64,000 nt of DNA, taken from NCBI GenBank assembly GCA_047972425.1, contig JBKEAR010000039.1, positions 20,127 to 84,126 of the forward strand, given 5' to 3'. Shown one piece after another: positions 6,340 to 60,932 of this stretch. Made by a program: the position numbers and the translations under genes. The notes under the pieces are model-generated. The model saw nothing but the letters and a program-made list of their open reading frames with translations, made no database searches and was not told where the DNA came from. Position 1 is the stretch's first letter. Every line of letters starts with the position of its first letter. The DNA comes from Alphaproteobacteria bacterium (GTDB lineage: Bacteria; Pseudomonadota; Alphaproteobacteria; JBKEAR01).

Positions 6340-8217
6340 TTAGTTAATATTATCAATATTTTCGCCCCTTAATGCAGAGCGTATTGTATTATCCATGCGG
6401 CGTTCCGCAAAAAATTTGGTTTGTTCTTCAGCTTTTTCTAAAGCATCTTCAATAGCATCACGGTCATTCCCTTGGCTAGCAATCGCTAGGTTTTGTACAA
6501 CCGTATCCATTTTTTGGCGTTCTTCAGCCGATAACATATTACCATCTACCGAAATAGCCGTATGTATCGCATTAATCACCCGCTCAGCTTCAACACGGCT
6601 TTCGGTCAAAATACGCCATTTCATATCGTCCTGAGCATTTTGTAAGGAAGATTTGAGCATTTGTGTCACTTCTTCTTCCGATAAACCCCAACTTGGTTTT
6701 ACATCAATATGTTGCTCTACACCCGTTGTTTCCTCTTTGGCAAAAACACTTAATAAACCATCGGCATCGACCGAATATGTCACTTGTATCCGTGCGGCAC
6801 CAGCAACCATTGGGGGGATACCGCGTAAAACAAATTGCGCTAAAGAACGGTTTTCGCTCACCATTTCGCGTTCACCTTGCAATACATGGATCATCATAGC
6901 GGTTTGGCCATCTTGAAAAGTTGTAAAATTTTGCGCTTTGGCTACAGGTATTGGTGTATTGCGATGAATAAGCTTTTCGACCATTCCACCCATCGTTTCT
7001 ACACCTAATGATAATGGCAACACATCTAATAACAACATATCAGAGCCTTTGGTTAAACCATGGGCTTGTTGGGCTGCACCAGCTGCCACAACAATATCTG
7101 GGTCAATATCTACCAAAACCGGTGCATTAAATAATGCCCCAACCATTTGGCGCACAAGCTCTTGCCTTGTAGAGCCACCAACCATGACTACACCTTGGAT
7201 ATCATTTTCATCAAGATTGGCATCGGCCAAAACACTGGTACAAATTTTAAGAGTTTTTTCGATGATATTTTTTGAAGCATTATCGACCTGCTCTTTGGTT
7301 AATTTATGTGTTGTTTCAACAGCATTCGGGTCAATTTTCCATTCCCCTATCTCGTGATGAGTGAGGTATTCTTTGGCTTCTTTTGCACATAATTGCGCTT
7401 GGCGAATATCGGTTTTATTAAGCTTTTCATCACCAATTTGTTTTTGCCTATCAGCTAAGATAAGTGCTGCAATTGCATTATCAATATCATCTCCGCCAAG
7501 GGCCGTATTTCCACCGGTTGCTAATACTTGGAAGATACCTTTCTCGAGCCGTAGGATAGAAATATCAAAAGTACCGCCACCAAAGTCGTAAATGGCATAG
7601 ATACCTTCGCTCCCTTTATCGAGCCCATAAGCTAAAGCGGCTGCTGTTGGCTCGTTAACAAGGCGCAAGACATCTAACCCAGCTAAACGGGCGGCATCGC
7701 GGGTGGCTGTTCGGGCAGCGTCATCAAAATAAGCCGGAACCGTAATAACAGCTCGATGAATTTTTTGCTCTAAATGTTCTTCGGCACGTTGTTTAAGCTC
7801 TTTTAAAATATCGGCAGAGACCTGAACCGGAGATAGTAACTTTGTCCCCACATCAATACGTATATCATTATCTTGTATCATCAGTTTTAGCGGCATTGTT
7901 TCTAATACTTTATCACCAGCACCCCGCCCCATTAAGCGTTTAACCGAGCTAACTACAGCATCGGGCTGGCGTAATAAAAGCTGGCTGGCTAACCACCCAA
8001 CAATCGGTTGCCCTTTTGGGGGATAAGCAACGACTGAAGGAATTAAATTGGAGCCACTATTTTCATCAGGAACTATTTGCGCTTTGCCTTCATCATCAAT
8101 CCATGCCACAACCGAATTTGTTGTGCCTAAATCGATACCAATCGCAATATCATCTAAAATTTCTTCATGGGGGTCGGGTGTTTGCCCGGGTTCAAATATT
8201 TGTAATAATTCTGCCAT
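6340..8217 (-). CDS. hscA: Fe-S cluster chaperone HscA (Hsp70 family)
   Basis: 625 aa; Hsp70 signatures ([18 protein letters not shown]); C-terminal lid; located in the isc operon. Confidence 0.9.
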
Positions 8218-8229
8218 ATATCAATCTCG

Positions 8230-8865
8230 TTATAAAGGAAAAGCCATGGGTGTTGCCATGTTCCCCCCTTTTACCTTTGCTATTTTTTCTTTGATTTCTT
8301 GCATAAATCGCCGTTCATACTGAAAGCTTAATATTTCATTTTCTAACGCTGCAATATTTTTTTCGTTATAAAATTTTGAAATATTATTAACGACTTCATC
8401 TTGTTTTTTTTGATTTTTTTGGAGCATCTCATTTAAAGCAGCCTCATCCTTTGCTTGGCCTAATGCCTCGCGCATCATCATAGAAGCCATAAGAATTTGC
8501 GGATTAACGTTTTTTCGGGTTTCGTCCTTATAAGATTCTCCCCCCAAAACAACACATAGATAATCGGCGCGATCTAAAGGTGATTTTAGTAAATTATAGG
8601 CATCATTTACCGCCATTGCTTGTTGAGATGCATACATTTTTTCTTTTGATGTTTTGGTTGCAAAACGATCGGGGTGGAGCAATTTTTGGCGTTCAAAATA
8701 TTGATGATCTAATAATTTAGGGTCAATGATAAAAGCTTCACTTATACCCATTATCTCAAATGGATTAAGCCCAACTAGTGGCTGGACAATATGGCAAGCA
8801 TCGCAAAAAAATGATGCTGGAGCTGTTTGGCTATGGCAGCTCCAACAAATAGCGGTGTTAGACAT
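8230..8865 (-). CDS. hscB: Co-chaperone HscB (J-domain) with N-terminal Cys4 zinc-finger
   Basis: J-domain with HPD (LLHPDRF); N-terminal CWSC...CDAC. Start placed at ATG 8865 (MSNTAICWSC), 3 nt after the iscA stop. The track start at 8919 would overlap iscA by 61 nt. Confidence 0.75.
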   Translation of the reverse strand: MSNTAICWSCHSQTAPASFFCDACHIVQPLVGLNPFEIMGISEAFIIDPKLLDHQYFERQKLLHPDRFATKTSKEKMYASQQAMAVNDAYNLLKSPLDRADYLCVVLGGESYKDETRKNVNPQILMASMMMREALGQAKDEAALNEMLQKNQKKQDEVVNNISKFYNEKNIAALENEILSFQYERRFMQEIKEKIAKVKGGNMATPMAFPL

Positions 8866-9193
8866 GGAAGCTTTCCCCGCAACCACATCTTCCTTTTTCA
8901 TTGGGGTTTTCAAATACAAAGCCCGAGGCTAATTTTTCGGCTTTGTAGTCCATCTCTGTACCAATAACAAACATAATCGCTTTCGGGTCAATAAATACGG
9001 TAACCCCTTTATCGGTAACAACTTCGTCATATTCACCTTGGTCATCGGCATATTCTAATGTATAGCTCATGCCCGAGCATCCGCGAGTTTTAACACCCAC
9101 ACGAATACCAGCAGACTCTTTACCGCGTGCTGCTAATAAGGCCTGAATTTGCTCGGCAGCTGCATTGGATACGGATATGATTGGTTCGGCCAT
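8858..9193 (-). CDS. iscA: Fe-S cluster assembly A-type carrier IscA
   Basis: 111 aa; conserved C..(60 aa)..CGCGESF motif. Confidence 0.85.
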   Translation of the reverse strand: MAEPIISVSNAAAEQIQALLAARGKESAGIRVGVKTRGCSGMSYTLEYADDQGEYDEVVTDKGVTVFIDPKAIMFVIGTEMDYKAEKLASGFVFENPNEKGRCGCGESFHV

Positions 9194-9211
9194 TTTTCCC
9201 CCAAATTGACT

Positions 9212-9595
9212 TTATTTTACTTTTTTCTCTTTATAATTAGAAATTGCAGCTTTAATTGCATCTTCGGCTAAAATAGAACAATGAACTTTTACGGGCGGTA
9301 ATGCAAGCTCTTTAGCAATATCGGTATTTTTAATTTCACCGGCTTCGTTAAGGCTTTTGCCTTTTACCCACTCGGTGATAAGCGATGAAGATGCAATGGC
9401 AGAGCCACAGCCAAATGTTTTAAATTTTGCATCTTCAATAATACCATCTTCGCTCACTTGAATTTGCAAACGCATTACATCGCCACATGCCGGTGCACCA
9501 ACAAGCCCTGTGCCGATATTTTCGGCATTTTCATCCATAGATCCCACATTCCGTGGATTTTCGTAATGATCTAATAATTTTTCGCTATATGCCAT
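9212..9595 (-). CDS. iscU: Fe-S cluster scaffold IscU
   Basis: MAYSEKLLDHYENPRNVGS..GAPACGD..HCS..; AAAGGA RBS. Track ORF trimmed by 19 codons. Confidence 0.9.
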   Translation of the reverse strand: MAYSEKLLDHYENPRNVGSMDENAENIGTGLVGAPACGDVMRLQIQVSEDGIIEDAKFKTFGCGSAIASSSLITEWVKGKSLNEAGEIKNTDIAKELALPPVKVHCSILAEDAIKAAISNYKEKKVK

Positions 9596-9617
9596 TTCTT
9601 TATCCTTTCTATAACTC

Positions 9618-10835
9618 TTAATGATCTGCCCATTGAATTGTTGATAAATCAATGCCAGCTAAATGCATTTCCCAAAGGGGTGAAAGCTCGCGTAAGCGCT
9701 TAACTTCTTTGATTAAACAATCGCATGCATAATCAATTTCCTCTAATGTCGTCCAACGGCCAAAAGACATGCGTAAAGATGAATGCGCCATCTCATCCGA
9801 TACATCAAGTGCAGCCAATACATAAGAAGGCTCTAAACTGGCCGATGTACATGCCGAGCCTGAACTAACGGCAATATCTTTAATCGACATCATTAAACTT
9901 TCGCCCTCAATATAACCAAATGAAATATTTAAGCTATTGGGTAAACGATGCTCTAAAGAACCATTCACATGGATTTCATTAAGCTCTGCATTTAAGCGAT
10001 TAAGCATATGCTCTTGCAAAGCTTTTAGGCGTTTATGTTCAGCTTCCATTTCTTGGTTAGCAAGTTCGGCGGCTTTACCAAGCCCCACAATAAGCGGTGT
10101 GGGTAATGTGCCCGAGCGCATTCCGCGCTCTTGCCCGCCCCCATGGATTTGGGCCAAAATGCGTACCCGTGGGCGACGGCGAACATATAAGGCACCAACC
10201 CCTTTTGGGCCATAAATTTTATGGCCAGAAATTGACATTAAATCGATATTCATATCGTTGACATCAAGCGGAATTTTACCAAAAGCTTGGGCGGCATCGG
10301 TATGAAAGAAAATTCCGTTTTCTTTTGCAATAGCACCAATTTCTTTAATTGGTTGCAGAACACCAATCTCGTTATTTGCAGCCATAACCGATATCACTAA
10401 AGTATCATCGCTAATAGCATCTTTTAACACTTGCAAATCAAGTAAACCATCTTTTTGTACCGGAAGAAAAGTTACACGAAAACCTTCTTCTTCGAGTTGG
10501 CGGCATGTATCGATAATACATTTATGTTCTGTGGCAACAGTGATAATATGTTTTTTTTCGTCACCATAAAATTTAGCTAATCCTTTAAGTGCAAGATTAT
10601 TGCTCTCGGTTGCCCCCGATGTAAAAATAATCTCTTTTGATGAGGCACCAATAACATCCGCAACTTGCACACGTGCTTTTTCTACAGCTTCTTCGGCTTC
10701 CCAACCATAAGGGTGAGAGCGCGAATGCGGATTACCGAATTTTTCGAAAAAATACGGATACATTTCTTTAACAACACGTGGATCAGTTGGCGCAGTTGCT
10801 TGATAATCGAAATAAATTGGGGCTTTTTCTGCCAT
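9618..10835 (-). CDS. iscS: Cysteine desulfurase IscS
   Basis: 405 aa class-V aminotransferase; PLP Lys motif [12 protein letters not shown]; active-site SSGSACTS loop. Confidence 0.9.
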
Positions 10836-10868
10836 GTTAATCTTACCTTATATTTATTGGTTATTAAT

Positions 10869-11354
10869 TTATAATTGTATTTCATACATTCGGTTAACGA
10901 CATCAGCAGCAGAAGAACAACGGGCTGATTCATCATGGTCAAAATTATCGGCACATACATCAGCTAATGTTACCTCATTTAACCATGCATGAATACGGCG
11001 TGTAAGCTCATGCCATAAGCGGTGGGTAACGCAACGCCCTGTACCTGTGCAACCTTCGTCATCATCTTCTTTATGGTCACAACCCATGGCTGTTAAAGGT
11101 TCATCGACCGATAAAATAATATTCGAAATACTAATTTCGTTGGCTTCACGTCCTAAATGATAACCACCACCGGGGCCACGGATAGAGCGAACAAGCTCCT
11201 CGCGGCGTAAACGCGAAAAAAGTTGCTCTAAATAGGAAAGAGAAATCCCTTGCCGGTCGGCGATATCTGAAAGTGATACCGGGCGATCGCCCGAATTTTG
11301 GGCTAAATCTACCATTGCCATTACGGCATATCGGCCGCGTGTACTGAGTTTCAT
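10869..11354 (-). CDS. iscR: Rrf2-family Fe-S regulator IscR
   Basis: 161 aa; Rrf2 wHTH (MKLSTRGRYAV..) plus C-terminal Cys cluster (CDH..GC..GRCVTH); immediately upstream of iscS. Confidence 0.8.
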   Translation of the reverse strand: MKLSTRGRYAVMAMVDLAQNSGDRPVSLSDIADRQGISLSYLEQLFSRLRREELVRSIRGPGGGYHLGREANEISISNIILSVDEPLTAMGCDHKEDDDEGCTGTGRCVTHRLWHELTRRIHAWLNEVTLADVCADNFDHDESARCSSAADVVNRMYEIQL

Positions 11355-12103
11355 TTACTGTCTCCAATATAATCTGTATTTGTGTCTGATTGTAGGGGGG
11401 CGGCTTCAGAAAAATTTTGATGGTCTTCATCAGTTTTTTTCATAGAAGCTTGCTCAATAACTTCAAGACGTTGTTTAATCAATATAATCTCTTGCATTGT
11501 CACATCGGGTAGACCATCGGGGTTAATGCCATAAGCACGAAAGTCACTTGCATCGTTATCTTTGGCCTGCCCAATAATTCGTGCCGGGTTACCAACAGCT
11601 GTTGTATTAGCCGGAATATTTTTTGTGACAACGGCATTGGCACCAATGCGGGCATTATCATCAACAATAATATCCCCTAATACGGAAGCACCAGAGCCAA
11701 TAATAACATTGTCTCTAATTGTTGGGTGGCGTTTAACACCAACTTGCGCGGCACTATTAATAGAGGGTGAAACACCACCTAATGTAACATTATGATAAAG
11801 AGTCACATTATCGCCAATAATCGCGGTTTCGCCAATAACAACACCCGTGGCATGATCAATCACAAAACCTTCGCCAATTTGTGCGCCGGGGTGAATATCA
11901 ACCGAGGTTAAAAAACGCCCCATCCCTGATAAAAGCCGCGCAATAAAATGTGTGTATTTTCTCTTCCAAAACCAATGCGAAAGACGATAAAATACAATTG
12001 CATGAAAACCCGGCCATAATAAAATTACCGATATTTTGTTAGGAGCTGCCGGGTCGCGCTCAAGAAAAGCATTTAAATCTGTATTAATTTTCTTGAAAAT
12101 CAT
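11351..12103 (-). CDS. cysE: Serine O-acetyltransferase CysE, translationally coupled (ATGA overlap) to iscR
   Basis: N-terminal SATase helical domain plus hexapeptide LbH repeats; alphaproteobacterial-style C-terminal extension. Confidence 0.85.
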   Translation of the reverse strand: MIFKKINTDLNAFLERDPAAPNKISVILLWPGFHAIVFYRLSHWFWKRKYTHFIARLLSGMGRFLTSVDIHPGAQIGEGFVIDHATGVVIGETAIIGDNVTLYHNVTLGGVSPSINSAAQVGVKRHPTIRDNVIIGSGASVLGDIIVDDNARIGANAVVTKNIPANTTAVGNPARIIGQAKDNDASDFRAYGINPDGLPDVTMQEIILIKQRLEVIEQASMKKTDEDHQNFSEAAPLQSDTNTDYIGDSK

Positions 12104-14184: not shown

Positions 14185-17100
14185 TTATTGGGCAACACCC
14201 CCAATAACATCAAAGATATTTCGTAAAACACCCGGAGCCAAAGCTTTTAACGGATTGCTTGTTATTTGCATATTCTGTTTGGTGCCTCTGATTTTATAAT
14301 CAGCAGCAAAAATTCCTTTGCCTTGCACGCCTGTAAGTAGTGTTCCTAATACAGGTATTTTACCTGTTGTATTAGAAAATGAATTAAACGGAACTATAAC
14401 GCCACTCAGATTTAAAAGCCCATTATCATCTAACCCAACTGTTCCATCAATTGTACCAGCCAATGCATTACCGGCCACCTCGGCATCATTTATAGAAAGC
14501 ATTTTATTTTCCATTTTAAACGGAATATTGGCTTTTTCAAAAACCAATCCATTGCCCGATAATGAATTGCTGAGCTGCGATAGACTCAAAAAACCAAGCA
14601 AATGGGTTAATGCGGGGGCATCTTTTACTGTAAAATTGGTAAGTGTTGCCACGCCTTCAAATGGTTGAGATGCTTTACTATCATCAATAATGCCCGATAT
14701 TTCTAATATGCCATTATAAATGGATTGGTTAATGCCAAACCCGCGGATAACAGAGCCGCCATCGTTAGAAACAACCCGCACATCGCGTAAATTCCCCCTT
14801 GGAGTGATTGTTATCTTTATAGGGGCTGAGTTTCCGGCTTTGGCCGTAATTTCGGCCTGAATAGCGGTATTTCCTTGAAAAACAAGCCAGCCTTTAGCAT
14901 CGTTAAACTCTGCTGCATTCATATAAATTTTGCTGAGGTTAATATTAACTCTGGTTGGTTTGGAGTTTTTATTAATTTTTTTATCCGCCAAATCAGCTGT
15001 AAAATTCTCTCTGCGTAAATCGAGTATACCTTTAACATCGGCTGTATTTTGTGATGAACCCGTATAATATTTTGCGGTTAAATTTGTTTCTTTTTGAGTA
15101 AAGCTCTCAACATCAATAGTTTCTAACTTGCCATTATTTATGCTTGTTTTTGCTGTTAAAGTTAAATCTTTTGCATTAAGGTAAATTTTAGGAATATCGA
15201 TATTATTACCATTCAGATGAATTTCTAAGTTAAGTTTTCCGGCTGTTCCGGCAGGTTTTTTAAAAGAGATAGCTTCAATATTAAAATCGGTATTATTTAG
15301 GTTTATAGATACATCAATTTTATTCGGATTACTGCTATTTGCTGTAATAGTCGCTACTAATGACCCTTTTGCATAAATAGCTTCTAATGCTTTTTTTGCA
15401 TCGGGACTATAGGATTTAAGCCATGATATAGGGATATTCGCGGTTGCTTTAAAAGACCATAAAGGTTCTTTTCCGGCAATATTAATTGATAAATCATCAA
15501 TATTTACCTGTTGGTCTTGAAATGTGAATGGCCCAGAAAATTGAATTATTTCGCCATTGATTATATATTTTAAATTATCGGATGTAATATTTTTACCATC
15601 AAAAATATCTTTAATTGAGGCTTTTGAAATAACCCCTTCTCCATTCAAATTTAAATCGGCAATATTGAGGTTATTATAATCAACTGTATTATCAAAGTTA
15701 AGTTTTAGGCTGAAATTCCCAATAATTTGTCCTGTAATTTGGCTGAGTTTGATATTGGTATTTTTTAGCATATTTTCGTTAAAATATTGTAGATATTTTA
15801 AAATAGAAGATACTGTGTGATTAATGTTGATATTGGTGGTTAACCATGGTGACTTACCCTGTTGAATATCTCCAACCATCACTTGCGCATCGTTAATAAC
15901 CAGATCATCAGTTTTGGCATCAATATTATCAATGATAATATTTTCACCCTGCATTTTAACCGATGCATTTTGCACCATGATATCCGGTGTTTTTGCTGTA
16001 TAATTAAGAATAACATCTTTTAAAGATAAAAAACTGCTAAAGTCGGTTTTCCACATATTATCAGCATCATGGTCAATGCGCATCGCAAGCAGGCCTTTTG
16101 CATAGCCATCTTTAACATTTTGTTTTATCCATTGCCATGCAGGCTCGCCTGCATTTTGCGGCCACATATCCATGATATCGGTAATATGAATTTCGGGGAG
16201 TTGTGCCGAAAAAGCATTTTTTGTAATTGGCCAGCCTATTTGTGTTTTATATGCGCCCTCGGCTTTATATCGGCCTGTATCAATGGAAATATTTGTTAAA
16301 TCTAAATATCTATTTTTGAGATTTAAGTAACCTGATGCTTGCCCTTCTTTAACCCGATAGGCTGCTTTTGCATTAGGAAAATACATAGGTTTTTCAGGAT
16401 CAGCTTGAATTTCAATAGCCTTAATACCTAAAATCATGGTTTTAAAATTAAAATCACCATCAATCAGAATTTCTTTGGCAAATGTCGGATTATTTGGCCA
16501 ATCGGGAAAAATAAGTTCAACTTCATTTGTCCTTAAATTCCAATGAGAGGTTAGCTGAATATTTTTAAAATCTTCTATTGAGCCCTCAAATGTAGCAAAA
16601 AAAGTAGCCGGCGCACTGCCTGTGGGCCAATATGGTACCAACATTTTGGGTAAAGGACCATATTCACTAAAATCGACAAAATCAAAATCCTCTATGAGCA
16701 TGCGCCCATGAAGTGCAAGGGTTTGTTTATTTATACCCGCAAAAATTTGTGCGCCTTTTTTAAGTATCATCTCATTATCATGCAGATAGCCTAAGAGTTG
16801 AAATTCATCGTCTTTTGCACGCAAGCTAACTGAAATATAAGGAAAAACATAAATTTGTTCACTATCATTATCTTGAAATTGTATCTGGATATCTTGAACA
16901 GAAATACCACCAATGCGCCCTAAAATATTATAAAGCTGGTTATAATTGATATTGGGTGTTGAGATTTCTTGGCGGTTTCCATTACTACGCCGACTGAAAG
17001 CCCGTAAAAAAACTTTACCGTCTTCTTTCACAATGGTTATTGTTAAGTTTTTAATCGATATGTCTTCGAGTATTGATTGAAAGCTGAGCGCTTTTTTAAA

Positions 17101-17391
17101 ATTGGAGCTTATGGCAACATCACCCAGATAGATAGAGCTATTGGCCTCTTGCCATTTTGCATTATTTAATCGTAGCTCTGGCCCCCAAGAATTTTGACCC
17201 CAAGCGAGTTCAAAATCGGAATATGTTAATTCATTAGGGATATTAAATTTATTGTCAGCCCAATCCATTGCAAAATTTAGGTTAATTGGCTTAATGGCAA
17301 TCCAAACGAATAAAAGGCTAAAAAGCAATAACAATATAGAAATAAAAATACAAAAACTTTTTAAAAGTTTTATGAATATAGCTTTTAGCAA
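14185..17391 (-). CDS. Large AsmA-family / DUF3971 envelope protein (YhdP/TamB-like)
   Basis: 1068 aa; single N-terminal TM anchor then long beta-rich Asn/Ile-rich region; C-terminal AsmA-like segment. Confidence 0.55.
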   Translation of the reverse strand: MLKAIFIKLLKSFCIFISILLLLFSLLFVWIAIKPINLNFAMDWADNKFNIPNELTYSDFELAWGQNSWGPELRLNNAKWQEANSSIYLGDVAISSNFKKALSFQSILEDISIKNLTITIVKEDGKVFLRAFSRRSNGNRQEISTPNINYNQLYNILGRIGGISVQDIQIQFQDNDSEQIYVFPYISVSLRAKDDEFQLLGYLHDNEMILKKGAQIFAGINKQTLALHGRMLIEDFDFVDFSEYGPLPKMLVPYWPTGSAPATFFATFEGSIEDFKNIQLTSHWNLRTNEVELIFPDWPNNPTFAKEILIDGDFNFKTMILGIKAIEIQADPEKPMYFPNAKAAYRVKEGQASGYLNLKNRYLDLTNISIDTGRYKAEGAYKTQIGWPITKNAFSAQLPEIHITDIMDMWPQNAGEPAWQWIKQNVKDGYAKGLLAMRIDHDADNMWKTDFSSFLSLKDVILNYTAKTPDIMVQNASVKMQGENIIIDNIDAKTDDLVINDAQVMVGDIQQGKSPWLTTNININHTVSSILKYLQYFNENMLKNTNIKLSQITGQIIGNFSLKLNFDNTVDYNNLNIADLNLNGEGVISKASIKDIFDGKNITSDNLKYIINGEIIQFSGPFTFQDQQVNIDDLSINIAGKEPLWSFKATANIPISWLKSYSPDAKKALEAIYAKGSLVATITANSSNPNKIDVSINLNNTDFNIEAISFKKPAGTAGKLNLEIHLNGNNIDIPKIYLNAKDLTLTAKTSINNGKLETIDVESFTQKETNLTAKYYTGSSQNTADVKGILDLRRENFTADLADKKINKNSKPTRVNINLSKIYMNAAEFNDAKGWLVFQGNTAIQAEITAKAGNSAPIKITITPRGNLRDVRVVSNDGGSVIRGFGINQSIYNGILEISGIIDDSKASQPFEGVATLTNFTVKDAPALTHLLGFLSLSQLSNSLSGNGLVFEKANIPFKMENKMLSINDAEVAGNALAGTIDGTVGLDDNGLLNLSGVIVPFNSFSNTTGKIPVLGTLLTGVQGKGIFAADYKIRGTKQNMQITSNPLKALAPGVLRNIFDVIGGVAQ

Positions 17392-27457: not shown

Positions 27458-27952
27458 ATGACAGACTATAATATTGGAGATTATGTTGTTTATCCGACCC
27501 ATGGTGTTGGACAAATAGAAGGAATTGAAACTCAAGAAGTTGCCGGACATAAGCTCGAACTCATTGCAATTAAATTTAGCGAAGACCGTATGACTTTGCA
27601 TGTACCCATGATGAAAGCAAAAAAATGTGGGCTTCGTGCGCTTTCAGATGATGGAATTATCGAAGAAGCCTTAACTGTGCTAAAAAGTAAGGCAAAAACA
27701 AGCAAAGAAATTTGGGCACGTAGAGCCCAAAATTACGAACAAAAAATCAACTCGGGTGACCCTGTAATTATTGCCGAGGTTATTCGGGATTTATATCGCA
27801 AAGTTAACCAGCCAGAGCAAAGTTTTTCGGAACGGAAAATTTACGAGCAGGCATTTGATCGCTTAGCAAATGAAGTTGCGGCATCGCGTGATTATGACAA
27901 TAAAGATAAAGCCGCACAATTGCTATATGCGTCTTTAAAATTACAGCCCTAA
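27458..27952 (+). CDS. cdnL: CarD/CdnL-family RNAP-binding transcription regulator
   Basis: N-terminal CarD_TRCF domain (YPTHGVGQIEG..); AAGAAGG RBS. Confidence 0.8.
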   Translation: MTDYNIGDYVVYPTHGVGQIEGIETQEVAGHKLELIAIKFSEDRMTLHVPMMKAKKCGLRALSDDGIIEEALTVLKSKAKTSKEIWARRAQNYEQKINSGDPVIIAEVIRDLYRKVNQPEQSFSERKIYEQAFDRLANEVAASRDYDNKDKAAQLLYASLKLQP

Positions 27953-28591
27953 TTCTTTTTTTTCGAATAGTCTAAAAATAGTATTATCTTCTTTATAAAT
28001 AATTTGATTGGGATGATGAATTTGCATAACTATATCATCCCATTTTTCTATTTGAGCAATGGCGTAAATTTCTTTACCAATATAAGGTCTCAAATTTTTA
28101 AATTTAAAGGTGGCATAGACATTTTTGGGGATATATATACGCAATTTTATTTCATTATTTGTTTTAAGATATAATGAATAGGCAAATGATGATTTTTTAT
28201 ATTCAGCCAAATCCCCTTTTATGACCCTATATTCATATAAATGTTTTTTTGCATCATCCGTTGTAAATATTGGTAATTTTAAACGGGCATTCCAGTAAGT
28301 TTCAAAATCTTTTTCATTTAGATCTTTTGCCGTAATCTCAAAACCATATGCAAACATCTGCTGCGGATGCACCTGTGCTTTTATCGCTTGCATAGGTATT
28401 GATGGCATAGCAATATCATCGTATGAAAAATTATTTAGTCGAATTTCATTATTTATATAATATCCGTACAGATAATATTCATCATTTTGGGTGGTAACGA
28501 TATTTTTATCGATAATAACATCATTATCGGCATGTGCCATTACTGGCAGTAAATATACCATTAAAACAAAAATTATTTTAGAATATCGCAT
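27941..28591 (-). CDS. Hypothetical secreted protein (signal peptide, no recognisable domain)
   Basis: MRYSKIIFVLMVYLLPVMAHA/DN signal. Tyr/Lys-rich, 216 aa. Its 3' end overlaps the cdnL 3' end by 12 nt. Confidence 0.4.
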   Translation of the reverse strand: MRYSKIIFVLMVYLLPVMAHADNDVIIDKNIVTTQNDEYYLYGYYINNEIRLNNFSYDDIAMPSIPMQAIKAQVHPQQMFAYGFEITAKDLNEKDFETYWNARLKLPIFTTDDAKKHLYEYRVIKGDLAEYKKSSFAYSLYLKTNNEIKLRIYIPKNVYATFKFKNLRPYIGKEIYAIAQIEKWDDIVMQIHHPNQIIYKEDNTIFRLFEKKELGL

Positions 28592-56307: not shown

Positions 56308-56946
56308 ATGTATATTAATAAAAAAGAAAAAACCGCTATTTTTATTGATGGCTCTAATTTATATACCACAGCTCGTGTATTGGGTTTTGATTTAGATTAT
56401 CAAAAATTACTTAAATTCTTCCAAAAAGAATGTAATTTGGTGCGTGCTTATTACTATACGGCTTTATTAGAAGGCCAAGATTATTCTCCTTTACGCCCAC
56501 TAGTGGATTGGTTGGATTATAATGGTTATAGCATGACAACAAAATCGGCTAAAGAATATACCGATAGCAATGGTAAAAGCCGAATTAAAGGTTCGGTAGA
56601 CGTGGAACTTGCTGTGGATGTTATGGAAATTGCCGATAAAGTAGATCATATCATTTTATTTTCAGGCGATGGTGACTTTAAGCATTTGATTGCCGCCGTA
56701 CAGCGTAAAGGTGTAAAGGTTACGGTTATTAGTACGGTTCGTTCTCAGCCAGTTATGGCTGCCGATGAATTACGCCGGCAAGCTGATTATTTTGTCGATT
56801 TACTCTCTATAAAAAATATTGTTGCACGCAAAGCATCAGGTAACGCACAAAATGAAAATTCTACAAAAAAAATTGATGAAGAACTCAATGATGAAATTCT
56901 AGCCAATCAAGATTCAGGTATTGATTGGGAAAATGAGTTTGAATAA
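56308..56946 (+). CDS. NYN-domain (LabA-like, PIN-related) protein
   Basis: AIFIDGSNLY..ILFSGDGDF NYN motifs; AGGTGA RBS. Confidence 0.7.
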   Translation: MYINKKEKTAIFIDGSNLYTTARVLGFDLDYQKLLKFFQKECNLVRAYYYTALLEGQDYSPLRPLVDWLDYNGYSMTTKSAKEYTDSNGKSRIKGSVDVELAVDVMEIADKVDHIILFSGDGDFKHLIAAVQRKGVKVTVISTVRSQPVMAADELRRQADYFVDLLSIKNIVARKASGNAQNENSTKKIDEELNDEILANQDSGIDWENEFE

Positions 56947-56966: not shown

Positions 56967-57572
56967 TTGGAAATTATATGCTTAGATATGGAAGGTGTTA
57001 TTGTTCCTGAAATTTGGGTGAATTTTGCCGAAAAAACAGGAATAAAAGAGCTGCGCCTAACGACAAGAGATATTAAAGATTATAATGAGCTTATGGATTA
57101 TCGGTTAAAAATACTTAACCAACATGGATATAAAATAAAAGATATCCAAGATGTTATTGCAACACTTAAACCATTTGATGGTGCAAAAGAATTTTTAGAT
57201 TGGATAAGAGAAAGAACCCAATTGGTTATTCTTTCGGATACATTTAGTGAATTTGCAAAACCATTAATGGTGCAGCTTGGAATGCCAACACTTTTTTGCC
57301 ATGAACTGGAAATTGCCGATGATGGGCAAATCACGGATTATAAATTACGTATGAAGGATCATAAAACCCATGCCACAAGAGCTTTTCAGAGCTTAAATTT
57401 TGATGTTTTTGCCGCAGGTGATTCGTATAATGATACAGGTATGCTAAAGCAGGCTCAAAAAGGTGTTTTATTCCGTGCGCCACAAAATGTTAAAGATGAA
57501 TTTTCTCAATTTAAAACTGCCGAGACTTATGAAGAAATGAAAGATATAATCTCAACATTTTTAGAAAGATAA
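56967..57572 (+). CDS. thrH: HAD-superfamily phosphatase, ThrH-like (phosphoserine phosphatase / homoserine phosphotransferase type)
   Basis: MEIICLDMEGVIVPEIW..ILSDTF..AAGDSYNDTGML closely parallels the Pseudomonas ThrH sequence (recollected from memory). TTG start 9 nt after GGAG. Confidence 0.6.
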   Translation: MEIICLDMEGVIVPEIWVNFAEKTGIKELRLTTRDIKDYNELMDYRLKILNQHGYKIKDIQDVIATLKPFDGAKEFLDWIRERTQLVILSDTFSEFAKPLMVQLGMPTLFCHELEIADDGQITDYKLRMKDHKTHATRAFQSLNFDVFAAGDSYNDTGMLKQAQKGVLFRAPQNVKDEFSQFKTAETYEEMKDIISTFLER

Positions 57573-57578
57573 TCATTT

Positions 57579-58718
57579 ATGGCAAAAGACCCCTATTTGG
57601 AACAAATAAAAAATAAAGCACAAAAGATGGAGCTTTTGTTGCGGTATATACCATATCCGCCTTTAAAAGTTCGTTTATTGCGTTATTACACGCGACTATA
57701 TAATTTTGATAAGGTTTCTGAAATTTTATCGGAAATACCCATTCGCTTTCCTTATAATTCTAACGATCGCTTTCAACTTGCATTTACTTGCTATAAATTG
57801 AACCAATTTAAAAAAGCTAAAGAATTATTACAGCCTTATTTTCCCGATAAAATCAACAGGGAAAAACTGGTATCACCCCATGCAAAAGGATTAAGCCTTA
57901 CGCATAAAGAAAGACTAATTCTTTTAGCCGCTCGGTTTCATATTCAAGAGGTTTATCAAAATAAGGGTATAACTATAGCATCAGATGTATTTAACGATGT
58001 TCAAGATTTGCTGGATAAAGTTATCGTTAAGCGTATTAAAGCAAAAAAACAAACAGATGATAGCCCGAAAACGGCATATATATTAAATTCGTTAAATGAT
58101 TTTATTAAAAATATAAAAAATGCCACTTCGGTCGCTATTATTGGTAATGGGCCAAACTTATTGAATAAAAAGCTTGGCAAAGAGATTGATATGCATGATA
58201 TTATTGTGCGTATGAATTTTTTTCATACCAAAAATTACGAGCAAGATACTGGAATAAAAACGGATATTTGGGTAACAGGTGCAAACGAAGCCTATGTTGA
58301 TAAACAATTAGATCAGACACCCAAAAATATATTATCTATTTTAAAATCATCAGGACTTCAAAATAAAACTACCTTTTTGCCAACAATCGAAAAAATTGAA
58401 GAAAGATTAAGGCAAGCATATACAGATTTTATTACGATACCTGCTGAGCAGCAAACTCTGGCTGAAGTGAAATGTTTAACTGAAACTCCATCAACCGGAA
58501 TGCGCTCTATTAGTTTTATGGTAAATATTTGTAATAAAAATGTCGATTTATACGGGTTTGACTTTTTTAGCACAACAGCGCATCATTATTACGATGTTAA
58601 TCGCCCGCTCGGAAAAGATTTTAAAGATAGAAAAATGTGGTATGTAGGGCATGATTTTTCTTGGGAGGCTATTTATGCACAAATACTAGCTTATCAGAAA
58701 AGAGCAAATATTTTTTAA
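57579..58718 (+). CDS. GT29-like (eukaryotic-type sialyltransferase family) glycosyltransferase, paralogue A, with N-terminal helical domain
   Basis: L-motif VAIIGNGPNL..LGKEIDMHDIIVRMN..YEQDTGIKT; S-motif PSTGMRSISFMVNICNKNVDLYGFDFF; motif III HHYYD; VS GHDFSWE. No signal peptide or TM. Confidence 0.7.
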   Translation: MAKDPYLEQIKNKAQKMELLLRYIPYPPLKVRLLRYYTRLYNFDKVSEILSEIPIRFPYNSNDRFQLAFTCYKLNQFKKAKELLQPYFPDKINREKLVSPHAKGLSLTHKERLILLAARFHIQEVYQNKGITIASDVFNDVQDLLDKVIVKRIKAKKQTDDSPKTAYILNSLNDFIKNIKNATSVAIIGNGPNLLNKKLGKEIDMHDIIVRMNFFHTKNYEQDTGIKTDIWVTGANEAYVDKQLDQTPKNILSILKSSGLQNKTTFLPTIEKIEERLRQAYTDFITIPAEQQTLAEVKCLTETPSTGMRSISFMVNICNKNVDLYGFDFFSTTAHHYYDVNRPLGKDFKDRKMWYVGHDFSWEAIYAQILAYQKRANIF

Positions 58719-58729
58719 GGAATATTCTA

Positions 58730-59803
58730 TTGAGAATAAAAGATAAATTTAAATTTGGTTCTGCATTTTTGCAAAATCGCTTTTTCCCAACCGAAAAAAG
58801 TATTTATCGGGCATCGCAATATTTTGTCAAAACAAATGATGTTAATGGATTTGATAATTTTTTGAGCAAAGTTGATCCGCAATTATTTCATCGAAAAGAG
58901 TTTTATTATACATATTTTTTAATTATGTCTCTTAAACGGAAAAATTTGAGGTTATATCAAAAATTTATTGAGACAAAAAAAAATATCAAAATACCTGAGA
59001 AACAGCATTTTCGTTCTTATCCGTATGATTTATTTTTGGCAGAGCAACGGCAATCTATTATGCAAATAGATACAGTTTCAGAGGCAGCATCTTCTTTTGT
59101 TTATTTACAAAAAAATCAACTTAATGATTTTTATCAAGATATCGTTTCTCACTATACAGTACCAAAAGAATATTTACCTTATGAAAAAAATTATAGGGAA
59201 TTTATTACAAAAATTTCACCCAATACAAAAATTGCCGTTGTGGGGAATGCGCCAAGCTTAAAAGAAAAAAAACTGGGTAAATTTATTGATAGTTTTGATA
59301 TTGTTATTCGGGTTAATAATTATTTAGTTAAAGGTTTTGAAGAATTCACAGGTAAAAAAACCAGTATATGGATGAGTGGTAATACACGCCGATATGAAGA
59401 TGAGAATAATTTACCTAAAATGGATATGCAGGTTATCATTACCCCTTCTTCTTGGTATTTTCGGCGACATGATCATCATGGACATATTAGCCATTTATTT
59501 GAAGGCAATGTGAAAAAAAATGTACCAAACGCTTTAATCCTTCCCTATGCTGTAATGATGAAAAATGAATGTATGGCGTTAATGATGAACCCTACAACGG
59601 GAATGAGAGCCATATTATGGGCATTATCAATGACGGATGAACCTGTAAATATTTTTGGATTTAATTTTTTTCAGGATACAGAAAATATCTATTATTATGG
59701 AAATCAAAATGTTCCTCTTGTGTGGAAAGAACAACATGATCTGGATTGGGAAAGAAAATTTATTGATATTCAGGTTTTCAATAATAAAGTGATTTGGCAT
59801 TAA
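58730..59803 (+). CDS. GT29-like glycosyltransferase, paralogue B
   Basis: IAVVGNAPSL..LGKFIDSFDIVIRVN, PTTGMRAILWAL, NIFGFNFF, YYYG, QHDLDWE. Start set at TTG 58730 (AAGGAA 7 nt upstream, directly after the A stop); the track ATG 58661 would overlap A by 58 nt. Confidence 0.55.
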   Translation: MRIKDKFKFGSAFLQNRFFPTEKSIYRASQYFVKTNDVNGFDNFLSKVDPQLFHRKEFYYTYFLIMSLKRKNLRLYQKFIETKKNIKIPEKQHFRSYPYDLFLAEQRQSIMQIDTVSEAASSFVYLQKNQLNDFYQDIVSHYTVPKEYLPYEKNYREFITKISPNTKIAVVGNAPSLKEKKLGKFIDSFDIVIRVNNYLVKGFEEFTGKKTSIWMSGNTRRYEDENNLPKMDMQVIITPSSWYFRRHDHHGHISHLFEGNVKKNVPNALILPYAVMMKNECMALMMNPTTGMRAILWALSMTDEPVNIFGFNFFQDTENIYYYGNQNVPLVWKEQHDLDWERKFIDIQVFNNKVIWH

Positions 59804-59804
59804 A

Positions 59805-60932
59805 ATGGGCAATAATAAAGAACTTAAAAGTCAATTTTATCATCTAGCATATAAATTAACGAAATCCGATAAATATGCACAAAAGATACTAAAATATTTG
59901 CTGCCATTAAGGGATGAACAGAAAGTATCGGTATTTCTGAATGAGCTAAAACACAAGCAGATGAAAGATCCACAACTTTTATATCATGCAGCCTCTACAA
60001 TGCATCGTATGGGTAAAAAAGAAGATGCTCTATCGATATTGGATAATCACGATGTAGGCAGATATTATGCCGAAGATATTATGGACTTAGATTTTTCTCC
60101 GCGACTTTCGTTATTTTTGCTTTCGGAACGCGTAAAGATTTATAATGATTATATTGATGGTAAAAGAGATAATGCCTCGGTCTATTATATGCATCTTATT
60201 GATACATATATTAAAAAAACTATAAGTGACTTACAACTATTATCACTTAATGATCATCATAATTCGGTTGTAGAAGCCAATAACCATAAATACCAAATTC
60301 TTTCGGTAAAACTTAAACAGCTCTATAACGAGGGTAAAACTTTTGCCATTGTTGGCAATGGGCCATCTTTAAAAAACAAAAATTTCGGCGAGCTGATAGA
60401 TTCCCATGATTATATTATCCGAGTGAATTATTATAACCTGAAGGGTTATGAGCAAGATGTTGGTTCTAAAATTAATTTATGGGCCACAGCTGCGAGCCCT
60501 GCTTATAAAGGATTGCAAAAGGATACTGAGCCAGAGGATATTGTTTGTATTTTAGGCCGTGGAAAATCTGCTAGAAAAAATAATGAATTACAGACAACAA
60601 TTAGCCGGGCTGCTGCGGGTTTAGAGCTAGATGCGAATGACTTTATGATGATGGATCATATCACCCAAATATCTACGGAGTTATATTCCTTATATCGCAC
60701 CCCTTGTACAGGTTTTCGGGCGATTATATGGATAACTCAAATATTAGATATTAAAGCATCAATTTTTGGTTTCGACTTCTTCCAAACAACCAATACACAT
60801 TATTACGATAAAGAAGTAAAAACCCATCAAAAGCATGGGGCCGAAGGTAAATGGTACTCTAACCATGACTTTAAATGGGAAAATTGTTTATGTGATATCC
60901 TTGATTATCAAGGGAGGTTAAAGCGGTATTGA
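59805..60932 (+). CDS. GT29-like glycosyltransferase, paralogue C
   Basis: FAIVGNGPSL..FGELIDSHDYIIRVN..YEQDVGSK, PCTGFRAIIWI, SIFGFDFF, THYYD, NHDFKWE. ATG 2 nt after the B stop. Confidence 0.7.
   Translation: MGNNKELKSQFYHLAYKLTKSDKYAQKILKYLLPLRDEQKVSVFLNELKHKQMKDPQLLYHAASTMHRMGKKEDALSILDNHDVGRYYAEDIMDLDFSPRLSLFLLSERVKIYNDYIDGKRDNASVYYMHLIDTYIKKTISDLQLLSLNDHHNSVVEANNHKYQILSVKLKQLYNEGKTFAIVGNGPSLKNKNFGELIDSHDYIIRVNYYNLKGYEQDVGSKINLWATAASPAYKGLQKDTEPEDIVCILGRGKSARKNNELQTTISRAAAGLELDANDFMMMDHITQISTELYSLYRTPCTGFRAIIWITQILDIKASIFGFDFFQTTNTHYYDKEVKTHQKHGAEGKWYSNHDFKWENCLCDILDYQGRLKRY

Follow-up and report, generated by a model that had tools for sequence, protein, structure and literature searches.

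Three back-to-back GT29 genes, here called A, B and C, lie on the + strand of a contig from an uncultured alphaproteobacterium. They raise the question of what enzymes with sialyltransferase motifs do in such a cell, and whether they are of eukaryotic or of bacterial type. We analysed them within a window of 64,000 nt, the whole stretch of DNA considered here.

Gene organization and genomic context

The first-pass annotation had described three co-directional ORFs of 379, about 357 and 375 aa, and these positions and lengths were confirmed. The genes and their upstream neighbors are as follows.

56308..56946, + strand: NYN-domain protein (PF01936, E = 5e-40; synteny), opening the co-directional run NYN-thrH-A-B-C
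56967..57572, + strand: thrH, bifunctional phosphoserine phosphatase/homoserine phosphotransferase (NCBIfam NF010109, 314 bits against a cut-off of 133; synteny)
57579..58718, + strand: paralogue A, 379 aa (GenBank MFV0322249.1, there 373 aa)
58730..59803, + strand: paralogue B, 357 aa (MFV0322250.1; PF00777, 77.3 bits)
59805..60932, + strand: paralogue C, 375 aa (MFV0322251.1, there 323 aa; PF00777, 72.8 bits)

For B, the gene callers' start is TTG 58730 with AAGGAA 8 nt upstream, so the length of about 357 aa is correct; an alternative start at TTG 58661 yields the mechanical ORF of 380 aa with the same end (59803). Only 6 nt separate the thrH stop from the start of A, a spacing that makes co-transcription of these two genes probable, and thrH keeps its position across all related contigs.

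The surroundings consist of housekeeping genes (thrH, NYN, slt, and dapA), not of a polysaccharide cluster. No CMP-sugar synthetase, NeuB/PseI/LegI, LPS, capsule, or flagellar genes were found in the window, for which reason donor and acceptor can be inferred only from relatives that are about 30% identical.

GT29 membership, fold, and motifs

All three proteins match the Glyco_transf_29 profile (PF00777) far above its gathering cut-off of 23 bits, with 83.5 bits for A (E = 2e-23), 77.3 for B (2e-21), and 72.8 for C (4e-20), over profile positions of about 41–52 to 245–264 of 272, bearing out the family assignment of the first-pass annotation. A phmmer search against the PDB recovered ST3Gal1 (E = 3e-12) and also matched ST6Gal1, ST8Sia3, and ST6GalNAc2. 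The fold agrees: the best 28 Foldseek matches of the AF2 model of A (pLDDT 80.8, pTM 0.82) are all GT29, ahead of GT42 and Maf, and the predicted fold is that of GT-A variant 2, with a seven-stranded parallel sheet, helices on both sides, and no DxD. The model of C is of low confidence (pLDDT 61) and has the same helix/strand order as A; within the model of A, residues 330–356, a loop beside the active site, have pLDDT < 50.

None of the three matches the GT42 Pfam profile CST-I (PF06002), and CstI/CstII are not the best structural match. The MptE-like (PF01973)/MAF_flag10 profile remains below its gathering score for A–C, and none of them has the FlmG-type architecture of an N-terminal TPR and a C-terminal GT-B domain.

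All four GT29 motifs (L, S, III, and the VS motif H-x4-E) occur in A, B, and C and, judged at the sequence level, the combined motif and profile match is far beyond chance. Their positions are listed below.

58131..58271, + strand: A, sialylmotif L (residues 185–231, VAIIGNGP...IDMHDIIVRMN...IW)
58488..58568, + strand: A, sialylmotif S (residues 304–330, PSTG...C318...LYGFDFF)
58584..58595, + strand: A, motif III (H336-Y-Y-D339)
58650..58667, + strand: A, motif VS (H358-D-F-S-W-E363)
59231..59371, + strand: B, sialylmotif L (residues 168–214, IAVVGNAP...IDSFDIVIRVN...IW)
59591..59671, + strand: B, sialylmotif S (PTTG)
59690..59701, + strand: B, motif III (YYYG)
59735..59752, + strand: B, motif VS (HDLDWE)
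60342..60482, + strand: C, sialylmotif L (residues 180–226, FAIVGNGP...IDSHDYIIRVN...LW)
60702..60782, + strand: C, sialylmotif S (PCTG)
60798..60809, + strand: C, motif III (HYYD)
60864..60881, + strand: C, motif VS (HDFKWE)

The S motif comprises PSTG, PTTG, or PCTG (A, B, and C, respectively), then 19 residues, then GF(D/N)FF, with (L/I)(Y/F) before GF. YYYG in B combines both rare alternatives of the motif III consensus, (H/y)-Y-(Y/W/F/h)-(D/E/q/g). The motif strings quoted earlier are all present, but not in every copy: B has GNAP rather than GNGP and GFEEFTGKK rather than YEQD(V/T)G.K, and the L motif of C starts with F.

Catalytic and donor-site residues

Residues were mapped through a phmmer alignment to ST3Gal1, with roles taken from PMC6884586, and conservation was counted over 117 homologous domains. 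In human ST3Gal1, N147 and N170 bind the CMP phosphate, Y191 contacts the sugar, H316 is the catalytic base, and H299 is the catalytic acid, H299A being inactive (PMC6884586). N147 and N170 have their counterparts in N190 and N213 of A, and neither position varies among the three paralogues. In the VS motif of A, H358 falls on His319 of pig ST3Gal1 (human H316), as expected from the earlier reading of this His as putatively catalytic, and E363 on pig Glu324. H336 of motif III occupies the H299 position; this His is present in A and C, and B has Tyr. Besides the CMP-phosphate Asn pair, A–C keep the sugar-loop motif P-S/T-T-G, the ribose-contacting G-F, and the His...Glu of the VS motif. Conservation across the homologous domains is high for N190 (108/117), N213 (116/117), G307 (115/117), and F327 (114/117). 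The Y191 position is taken by Trp (W231 in A), as in 98 of the 117 homologues, and A–C have no Trp at the position of the cytosine-stacking W297 of ST3Gal1.

A bacterial rather than eukaryotic type of GT29

The first-pass annotation had called the sialylmotifs "complete eukaryotic-type". The four motifs stand, but the label is overstated: the L–S Cys pair and the anchor are lacking, B has Tyr at motif III, and the closest homologues come from prokaryotes or metagenomes. The L–S disulfide (C142–C281) is essential in human ST3Gal1 (PMC6884586). At the L-motif Cys position, A–C carry V185 (A), I168 (B), and F180 (C), and the S-motif Cys occurs only in A (C318); by sequence, all three lack this bond, an invariant feature of eukaryotic GT29. 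No signal peptide or membrane anchor was found in A, B, or C: the maximum 19-residue Kyte–Doolittle hydropathy is 0.63–1.25, and the charged, helical N-termini do not amount to a type II anchor. Cys pair and anchor are likewise missing in 100 of the 117 nearest homologues.

We consider it extremely unlikely that a recent horizontal transfer from a eukaryote brought these motifs into the bacterium. The G+C content of the three genes (29.6–34.4%) lies at the low end of the window range (mean 38%), and the Pfam model and all solved GT29 structures are eukaryotic, but other poorly conserved genes in the window are equally low in G+C, and the A-B-C array is syntenic across lineages whose flanking genes differ by a dS of about 0.5–0.7. 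The catalytic domains share 30–34% identity with prokaryotic/metagenomic homologues versus 23–25% with pig ST3Gal1, and at least 98 prokaryotic species from many phyla encode a GT29 domain. Of the 23 bacterial GT29-like sequences described by Petit et al. (2018, Sci Rep 8:2946, PMC5811610), 19 come from Alphaproteobacteria. In published trees bacterial GT29 branches basally within the family, and it has been suggested that all eukaryotic sialyltransferases descend from such proteins, possibly via an alphaproteobacterial endosymbiont (PMC5811610).

On sequence grounds, A, B, and C are thus bacterial-type GT29, not eukaryotic-type. They are real, but of a kind of bacterial enzyme already described and annotated; GenBank/PGAP names all three "glycosyltransferase family 29 protein". 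In line with the first-pass annotation, which held bacterial GT29 to be functionally uncharacterized, our literature search found no paper with measured activity or biochemical characterization of any bacterial GT29.

N-terminal domain, paralogue divergence, and selection

Each protein combines an N-terminal helical domain of ∼175 aa with a C-terminal catalytic domain of ∼200 residues; in A, residues 1 to ∼181 are all-helical and TPR-like, and ∼182–379 form the GT29 catalytic domain. In sequence searches the TPR matches stay below threshold (E = 0.05–0.09). In an exhaustive search, only 5 of 1.84 billion representatives covered the N-terminal domain, all from the same small uncultured lineage.

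Pairwise identity among A, B, and C is 27–29% over the full length and 30–39% in the catalytic halves (BLASTP E 2e-29 to 8e-47), so that the 30–40% given earlier is true of the C-terminal half only. The N-terminal halves show no BLAST similarity to one another; with hhalign, A and C are related (E = 4e-5), and comparisons with B are not significant. Against orthologues of 83–90% identity, dN/dS is 0.06–0.12 (B 0.124, C 0.060); A, B, and C are functional genes under purifying selection. A sister lineage shows turnover of copies. Such turnover, with N-terminal domains diverged past BLAST recognition, makes the diversification of specificity suggested by the first-pass annotation plausible.

One or more copies, B above all, might alternatively be catalytically dead and act as a glycan- or nucleotide-binding protein or as a scaffold partner of an active copy. 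Tyr in B at the residue whose loss inactivates human ST3Gal1 (H299A; PMC6884586), the shrinkage of B to a 91-aa remnant in one case (L006), and the splitting of C into two ORFs in another (L004) would fit. However, Tyr falls within the consensus that active human enzymes show at this position of motif III, and B retains both Asn, PTTG, GF, and the VS His...Glu under a dN/dS of 0.12, which leaves a dead copy very improbable.

Proposed function

A, B, and C are most likely cytoplasmic inverting CMP-ulosonic-acid (Kdo or nonulosonic acid) transferases of the bacterial GT29 branch, with three acceptor specificities. They would be soluble cytoplasmic two-part proteins, a TPR-like N-terminal domain joined to a GT-A variant 2 catalytic domain. 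To judge from their residues, they would move a CMP-activated 2-keto-3-deoxy (ulosonic) acid with inversion onto an acceptor hydroxyl, by the GT29 mechanism, a metal-independent SN2 displacement with a His base and a His acid. Candidate donors are CMP-Kdo or a CMP-nonulosonic acid (Neu5Ac, Leg, or Pse); CMP-Kdo production is expected of a Gram-negative cell, for LPS. The three copies may differ in acceptor or linkage specificity, with the fast-diverging N-terminal domain as a candidate acceptor- or partner-recognition module.

The acceptor would most likely be a lipid-linked surface glycan (LPS core/O-chain or capsule) built at the cytoplasmic face of the inner membrane, a proposal made because the gene neighborhoods of other bacterial GT29 genes suggest such glycans. 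Among 147 neighbors of 30 bacterial GT29 loci, we counted GT2 (8), polysaccharide pyruvyl transferase (8), sugar epimerases/dehydratases (7), RmlD (6), GT8 (4), CMP-sugar cytidylyltransferase (4), NeuB (3), and capsule synthesis (2). Counting against the overall reading of A–C as such transferases are Trp at Y191, the lack of Trp at W297, Tyr at the catalytic-acid position of B, the poorly modelled loop beside the active site of A, the absence of donor-synthesis and surface-glycan genes from the window, and the housekeeping neighbors, which set this locus apart from those other GT29 loci.

Genuine sialyltransferases, the reading implied by the first-pass annotation, which would cap a surface glycan from CMP-Neu5Ac (e.g. 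in host mimicry) in three linkages parallel to ST3/ST6/ST8, are an unlikely alternative to Kdo or nonulosonic acid transfer in general. The best sequence and structure matches of known function are Neu5Ac transferases, and NeuB adjoins 3 and a cytidylyltransferase 4 of the 30 loci, but NeuB-family synthases make Leg and Pse as well, and neuA, neuB, and neuC are all absent from the window. A TRAP transporter lies 12 kb from A-B-C, yet its binding protein matches the generic DctP subfamily only, not the sialic-acid equivalog. The Neu5Ac-contacting Y191 is replaced as described above, and no sialyltransferase activity has been detected in plant GT29 enzymes that share the motifs, one of which, RCKT1, is a proposed Kdo transferase (PMC11288761). 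By analogy with plant RCKT1 (PMC11288761) and E. coli K6 (PMC13171606), a GT29 protein need not use sialic acid.

Cytoplasmic protein O-glycosylation would put the TPR-like domain to use in binding a flagellin, pilin, or adhesin to which the GT29 domain adds nonulosonic acid or Kdo. Analogues exist in FlmG (TPR + GT-B), whose TPR domain binds flagellin (10.1101/2022.03.25.485807), and in Maf (a GT-A resembling GT29/GT42), and A–C have sub-threshold MptE-like/Maf-family matches at the L motif. The location outside any polysaccharide cluster and the rapid N-terminal divergence also fit. Against this, the TPR matches are themselves sub-threshold, the helical region may in part be the N-terminal helical portion of GT29 catalytic domains, the window holds no flagellar or other candidate substrate gene, and flagellin is not among the 25 neighbor families listed by member count for other bacterial GT29 genes. 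We therefore regard this reading as improbable. Its boldest form, in which A–C would be a third, previously unrecognized class of cytoplasmic protein ulosonic-acid (NulO/Kdo) O-glycosyltransferases beside Maf and FlmG, each copy sent to a different protein by its own N-terminal domain, is decidedly unlikely.

Significance

What is specific to this locus is the N-terminal domain, its divergence among paralogues, purifying selection with copy turnover, and the housekeeping neighbors. Current understanding is unchanged unless the donor or acceptor proves unusual. Being soluble, without a disulfide or anchor, A–C should express more easily in E. coli than the animal enzymes; they are practical subjects with which to begin the biochemistry and structural biology of the bacterial GT29 branch and could become glyco-engineering catalysts. 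The triplet, with conserved catalytic and divergent N-terminal halves, would offer a natural experiment on the evolution of acceptor specificity.

Comparison with known systems

A–C resemble the bacterial GT29 of Petit et al. (PMC5811610) in their four sialylmotifs, lack of a transmembrane domain and of the L/S Cys pair, and alphaproteobacterial hosts, but differ from that set in the N-terminal helical domain and the triplet arrangement. Many other bacterial GT29 proteins are single-domain (∼200–230 aa) or large fusions, and their genes lie mostly in polysaccharide clusters, whereas A–C sit among housekeeping genes.

With mammalian ST3Gal1 (PDB 2WNB/2WNF), ST6Gal1, ST6GalNAc2, and ST8Sia3, they share motif order and spacing and the equivalents of ST3Gal1 N147, N170, S268/T269, F289, H299 (Tyr in B), H316, and E321. 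Unlike these enzymes, at 23–25% identity, they have no type II anchor/stem or C142–C281 disulfide, carry the extra helical domain, depart at Y191 and W297, and are predicted to be cytoplasmic rather than Golgi-lumenal.

Among soluble bacterial proteins, Maf (PDB 5MU5; MptE-like/MAF_flag10) is likewise cytoplasmic and multi-domain, with a central GT-A resembling GT29/GT42 and CMP-NulO donors. The GT42 enzymes Cst-I/CstII of Campylobacter jejuni are soluble or peripheral, metal-independent sialyltransferases of a related GT-A variant fold.

Arabidopsis RCKT1/MGP2 is a GT29 proposed from mutant evidence as the CMP-beta-Kdo transferase of rhamnogalacturonan II (PMC11288761). Unlike A–C it is a plant Golgi membrane protein, and the likeness is drawn from its description: it carries sialylmotifs in an organism with little or no sialic acid, with the same inverting mechanism proposed on a CMP-ulosonic acid, and so shows a possible donor for A–C. 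The GT29-GT107 dual-domain protein of the E. coli K6 capsule, a predicted poly-Kdo maker (PMC13171606), differs in its fusion to a GT107 retaining Kdo transferase and its place inside a capsule locus, but like A–C it has a bacterial GT29 domain, in its case with a predicted role in ulosonic acid (Kdo) transfer.

Genes and genomic context

Paralogues A, B and C, three GT29 genes each encoding an N-terminal helical and a C-terminal catalytic domain, lie closely packed on the same strand within 57579-60932, downstream of the NYN and thrH genes. The features considered here, in window coordinates, are:

57579-58718, forward strand: paralogue A, ORF of 379 aa
58661 (TTG) to 59803, forward strand: paralogue B, mechanical ORF
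58730 (TTG), forward strand: start of paralogue B from independent gene calls (357 aa), with AAGGAA 8 nt upstream and 11 nt past the A stop
59805-60932, forward strand: paralogue C, ORF of 375 aa
43263-46392: TRAP transporter, dctP on the forward strand, dctM and dctQ on the reverse strand

The thrH stop is 6 nt ahead of the A ATG and the B stop 1 nt ahead of the C ATG; given this tight spacing, NYN-thrH-A-B-C is probably one transcription unit. When the locus was scanned for promoter and terminator consensus sequences, matches did not exceed the shuffled-sequence expectation. A gene for an SLT-domain lytic transglycosylase (slt) faces the block convergently.

GenBank holds the three proteins (MFV0322249.1, MFV0322250.1 and MFV0322251.1, on a 98.9-kb MAG contig labelled 'Alphaproteobacteria bacterium') and already names them 'glycosyltransferase family 29 protein'. 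For A (373 vs 379 aa) and C (323 vs 375 aa), its models fall short of the longest ORFs, which start at 57579 and 59805. Because the 323-aa model would drop 52 residues of conserved N-terminal helices, the GenBank start of C is probably mis-called.

The remaining window genes are housekeeping (isc, parE/parC, glnE, mfd, recG, plsX/fabH, glyA, spoT, rpoZ, era, rnc, lepB, and others). They include an ordinary, complete isc operon (6340-12103, reverse strand; iscR, iscS, iscU, hscB, hscA), with cysE directly upstream of iscR. A 1068-aa ORF (14185-17391, reverse strand) carries a hydrophobic helix at its N-terminus and matches nothing in Pfam or NCBIfam at E ≤ 1e-3; by eye, its C-terminus may resemble AsmA/YhdP-type envelope proteins. 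A 216-aa ORF (27941-28591, reverse strand) has a signal-peptide-like N-terminus and no family match; no window gene has lower G+C (28.4%).

Family membership and predicted fold

The match of A, B and C to GT29 rests on more than a few motifs. The motif strings quoted in the first-pass annotation were all found, with the four sialylmotifs in canonical order in each protein, and its GT29 identification was borne out by Pfam PF00777 (83.5, 77.3 and 72.8 bits for A, B and C; gathering score 23) and by phmmer against PDB sequences, where ST3Gal1 ranked first (E = 3e-12), followed by ST6Gal1, ST8Sia3 and ST6GalNAc2, all GT29, with no other significant match. NCBIfam holds no specific model for the three proteins. 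The 30-40% identity estimated by eye among the paralogues applies to their C-terminal halves (30-39%; BLAST E 2e-29 to 8e-47) and not to their full length (27-29%), since all similarity is confined to those halves; BLAST found none among the N-terminal ∼160-180 residues.

An AlphaFold2 model of A, built from a seven-sequence alignment, was confident (mean pLDDT 80.8, pTM 0.82) save for a loop (residues 330-356) that links motifs III and VS. In this predicted structure, residues 1-181 form nine helices, followed by an alpha/beta domain. Its fold-match scores were highest for the GT29 structures ST3Gal1 (14.6), ST6GalNAc2 (14.2), ST8Sia3 (12.6) and ST6Gal1 (12.6), ahead of MptE-type HPPK (10.9), GT42 Cst-I (10.2) and Maf (8.0); a top rank for GT42 or Maf, the outcome first named as contrary to a GT29 reading, did not appear.

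The model of C has low confidence (pLDDT 61), yet its helices and strands succeed one another as in A, and profile-profile comparison supports homology between N-terminal domains of the A and C types (115 columns, E = 4e-5). The same comparison did not support homology of the B N-terminal domain to either type. Other bacterial GT29 proteins of ∼380 aa that we checked lack the N-terminal domain of A, B and C. Four metagenomic ones (P0013, P0018, P0038 and P0100) have N-terminal halves with sub-threshold MptE-like or CST-I matches, which suggests tandem degenerate sialyltransferase-like domains, unlike the helical domain of the window. Another protein, P0006, is a GT8-GT29 fusion with a precomputed match to Pfam PF18404, and other matches reach 1591 aa.

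Host lineage and distribution of bacterial GT29 domains

The ParE of the window is at best 64-66% identical to that of named organisms (Rhodospirillales-type taxa) and 76-89% identical to that of a handful of uncultured relatives; the low identity to named organisms points to a deep, uncultured alphaproteobacterial lineage as host. A word-indexed search returned 3-6 close homologues of A, all from this lineage. When 1.84 billion representative proteins were searched exhaustively with a profile, 6479 matched at E ≤ 1e-3 and 1439 at E ≤ 1e-10; only five of them, all from the host lineage, covered the N-terminal domain.

A genome-contig scan with a single protein query found nothing. With two strict peptide patterns, GT29-like domains were gathered from at least 98 species-representative genomes (Melainabacteria, Verrucomicrobiota, Kiritimatiellia, Lentisphaerae, Spirochaetes, Planctomycetota, Alpha- and Gammaproteobacteria, Helicobacter, and Firmicutes) and at least 337 metagenome contigs. 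A six-sequence alignment was used for the species-representative scan, and the source species is not in that set. In both the genome and the metagenome scan, relatives aligned over most of the domain shared at most ∼36% identity with A.

The first-pass annotation had called the sialylmotifs 'eukaryotic-type'. The eukaryote-type Cys pair occurs in 6 of the 117 best full-length domains (from four proteins), and, in a rough alignment, A, B and C are closer to their nearest non-family homologues, which are prokaryotic or metagenomic (30-34% identity), than to pig ST3Gal1 (23-25%). Both observations argue that the label is a misnomer and that the three proteins are members of a large prokaryotic GT29 branch, described in 2018 by Petit et al. 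(PMC5811610). The premise of rarity falls as well: the class was already in the literature, prokaryotes carry the domain widely, and these very proteins had GT29 annotations.

Catalytic residues and comparison with animal enzymes

Residues were mapped through a phmmer alignment to the 2WNB chain (chain index + 45 gives pig numbering, and pig − 3 gives human) and the ST3Gal1 roles compiled for human and pig in PMC6884586.

Residues of paralogue A, their human ST3Gal1 counterparts and the roles of the latter
N190; N147; hydrogen bond to CMP phosphate
N213; N170; hydrogen bond to CMP phosphate
S305-T306; S268-T269; sugar contacts
F327; F289; ribose contact
H336; H299; catalytic acid
H358; H316; catalytic base
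E363; E321; conserved Glu of the VS motif

All mapped residues are common to A, B and C, the sole exception being a Tyr in B at the H336 position. This Tyr (Y321, 59690-59692) replaces the usual catalytic-acid His of motif III, and in a more distant lineage (L006, below) it is B that has decayed; in the human motif III consensus, Tyr is a rare alternative at that His. The conserved residues would serve CMP binding and inverting transfer with a His base and a His acid, and with these retained, A, B and C are probably active CMP-ulosonic-acid transferases.

Other positions differ from the animal enzymes. In eukaryotic GT29, an essential disulfide joins the L and S motifs without exception; in the three paralogues, V, I or F takes the place of the L-motif Cys, and only A has the S-motif Cys. 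The Neu5Ac-contacting Y191 of ST3Gal1 is Trp in all three and in 98 of 117 homologous domains, and the position of the cytosine-stacking W297 is not conserved in them. By hydropathy, no segment qualifies as a membrane anchor or signal peptide. With the L-motif Cys replaced and no such segment, A, B and C are predicted to be cytoplasmic, disulfide-free enzymes, as bacterial GT29 sequences have likewise been described (Petit et al. 2018, PMC5811610).

Evolution of the locus

The NYN-thrH-A-B-C-slt block recurs in several assemblies (L002-L005), with A orthologues at 83% identity. Against L002, dN/dS was 0.106 for A, 0.124 for B and 0.060 for C, compared with 0.050 for thrH and 0.044 for NYN, and the dN of A, B and C was 2-4 times that of the flanking genes. 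These values argue that all three copies are kept by selection, yet evolve faster than their neighbours.

In the more distant L006, identity of A falls to 78%, while the flanking thrH and NYN are still at 93-95%. There (L006:6753-10372), B has shrunk to a 91-aa ORF followed by two C-like GT29 genes (374 and 372 aa, 41-47% identity to C), and a 312-aa gene with no Pfam match replaces the downstream SLT gene. In L004, two ORFs (206 and 126 aa) stand in place of an intact C orthologue (L004:3760-4886), which could reflect pseudogenisation or an assembly error. A rough neighbour-joining tree grouped A, C and the C-like genes in 81 of 100 bootstraps; monophyly of A, B and C was recovered in only 8 of 100, leaving the placement of B without support. 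The G+C of the three genes (29.6-34.4%) is at the low end of the window (z −0.9 to −2.2). They are not outliers, however: other weakly conserved window genes are as low, so G+C makes no case for recent horizontal transfer.

The new elements are modest: the N-terminal domain is confined to one lineage, the three-gene array is under selection yet unstable, and its housekeeping surroundings are atypical. Some value remains because our literature search found no biochemically characterised bacterial GT29; soluble and disulfide-free by prediction, A, B and C would be convenient first subjects for such biochemistry.

Donor, acceptor and related systems

The GT29 name leaves the donor unfixed. In plant GT29, sialyltransferase activity is not detectable, and RCKT1 has been proposed as a CMP-Kdo transferase on mutant evidence (PMC11288761); for the E. 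coli K6 capsule, a GT29-GT107 protein is predicted to synthesise poly-Kdo (PMC13171606). Scanning 147 ORFs adjoining bacterial GT29 genes at 30 genomic loci against Pfam, we found GT2 (8), polysaccharide pyruvyl transferase (8), NAD-dependent sugar epimerases/dehydratases (7), RmlD (6), GT8 (4), CMP-sugar cytidylyltransferase (4), NeuB-family synthase (3), capsule synthesis protein (2) and GT25 (2). These families are a surface-polysaccharide signature, with some loci using Kdo or nonulosonic acids. Within the window, the A-B-C triplet is outside any such locus. Two candidate links to ulosonic acids were rejected: thrH as a Kdo-8-P or Neu5Ac-9-P phosphatase, being a clear ThrH equivalog, and the TRAP transporter as a sialic-acid importer, as it matches only generic DctP/DctM subfamilies.

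We infer, as the likely reading for both donor and acceptor, that the three enzymes work in the cytoplasm, taking CMP-Kdo or a CMP-nonulosonic acid as donor and adding the sugar to a surface glycoconjugate, each with its own acceptor or linkage specificity. The main alternative replaces the surface glycan with a protein acceptor; by analogy with the flagellin glycosyltransferases FlmG and Maf, this may be indicated by the architecture, a soluble protein of two domains in which the N-terminal helical repeats diverge fast. In FlmG, a TPR domain binds flagellin (10.1101/2022.03.25.485807), and A, B and C carry a predicted helical-repeat N-terminus; in Maf, the GT-A domain resembles GT29 and GT42.
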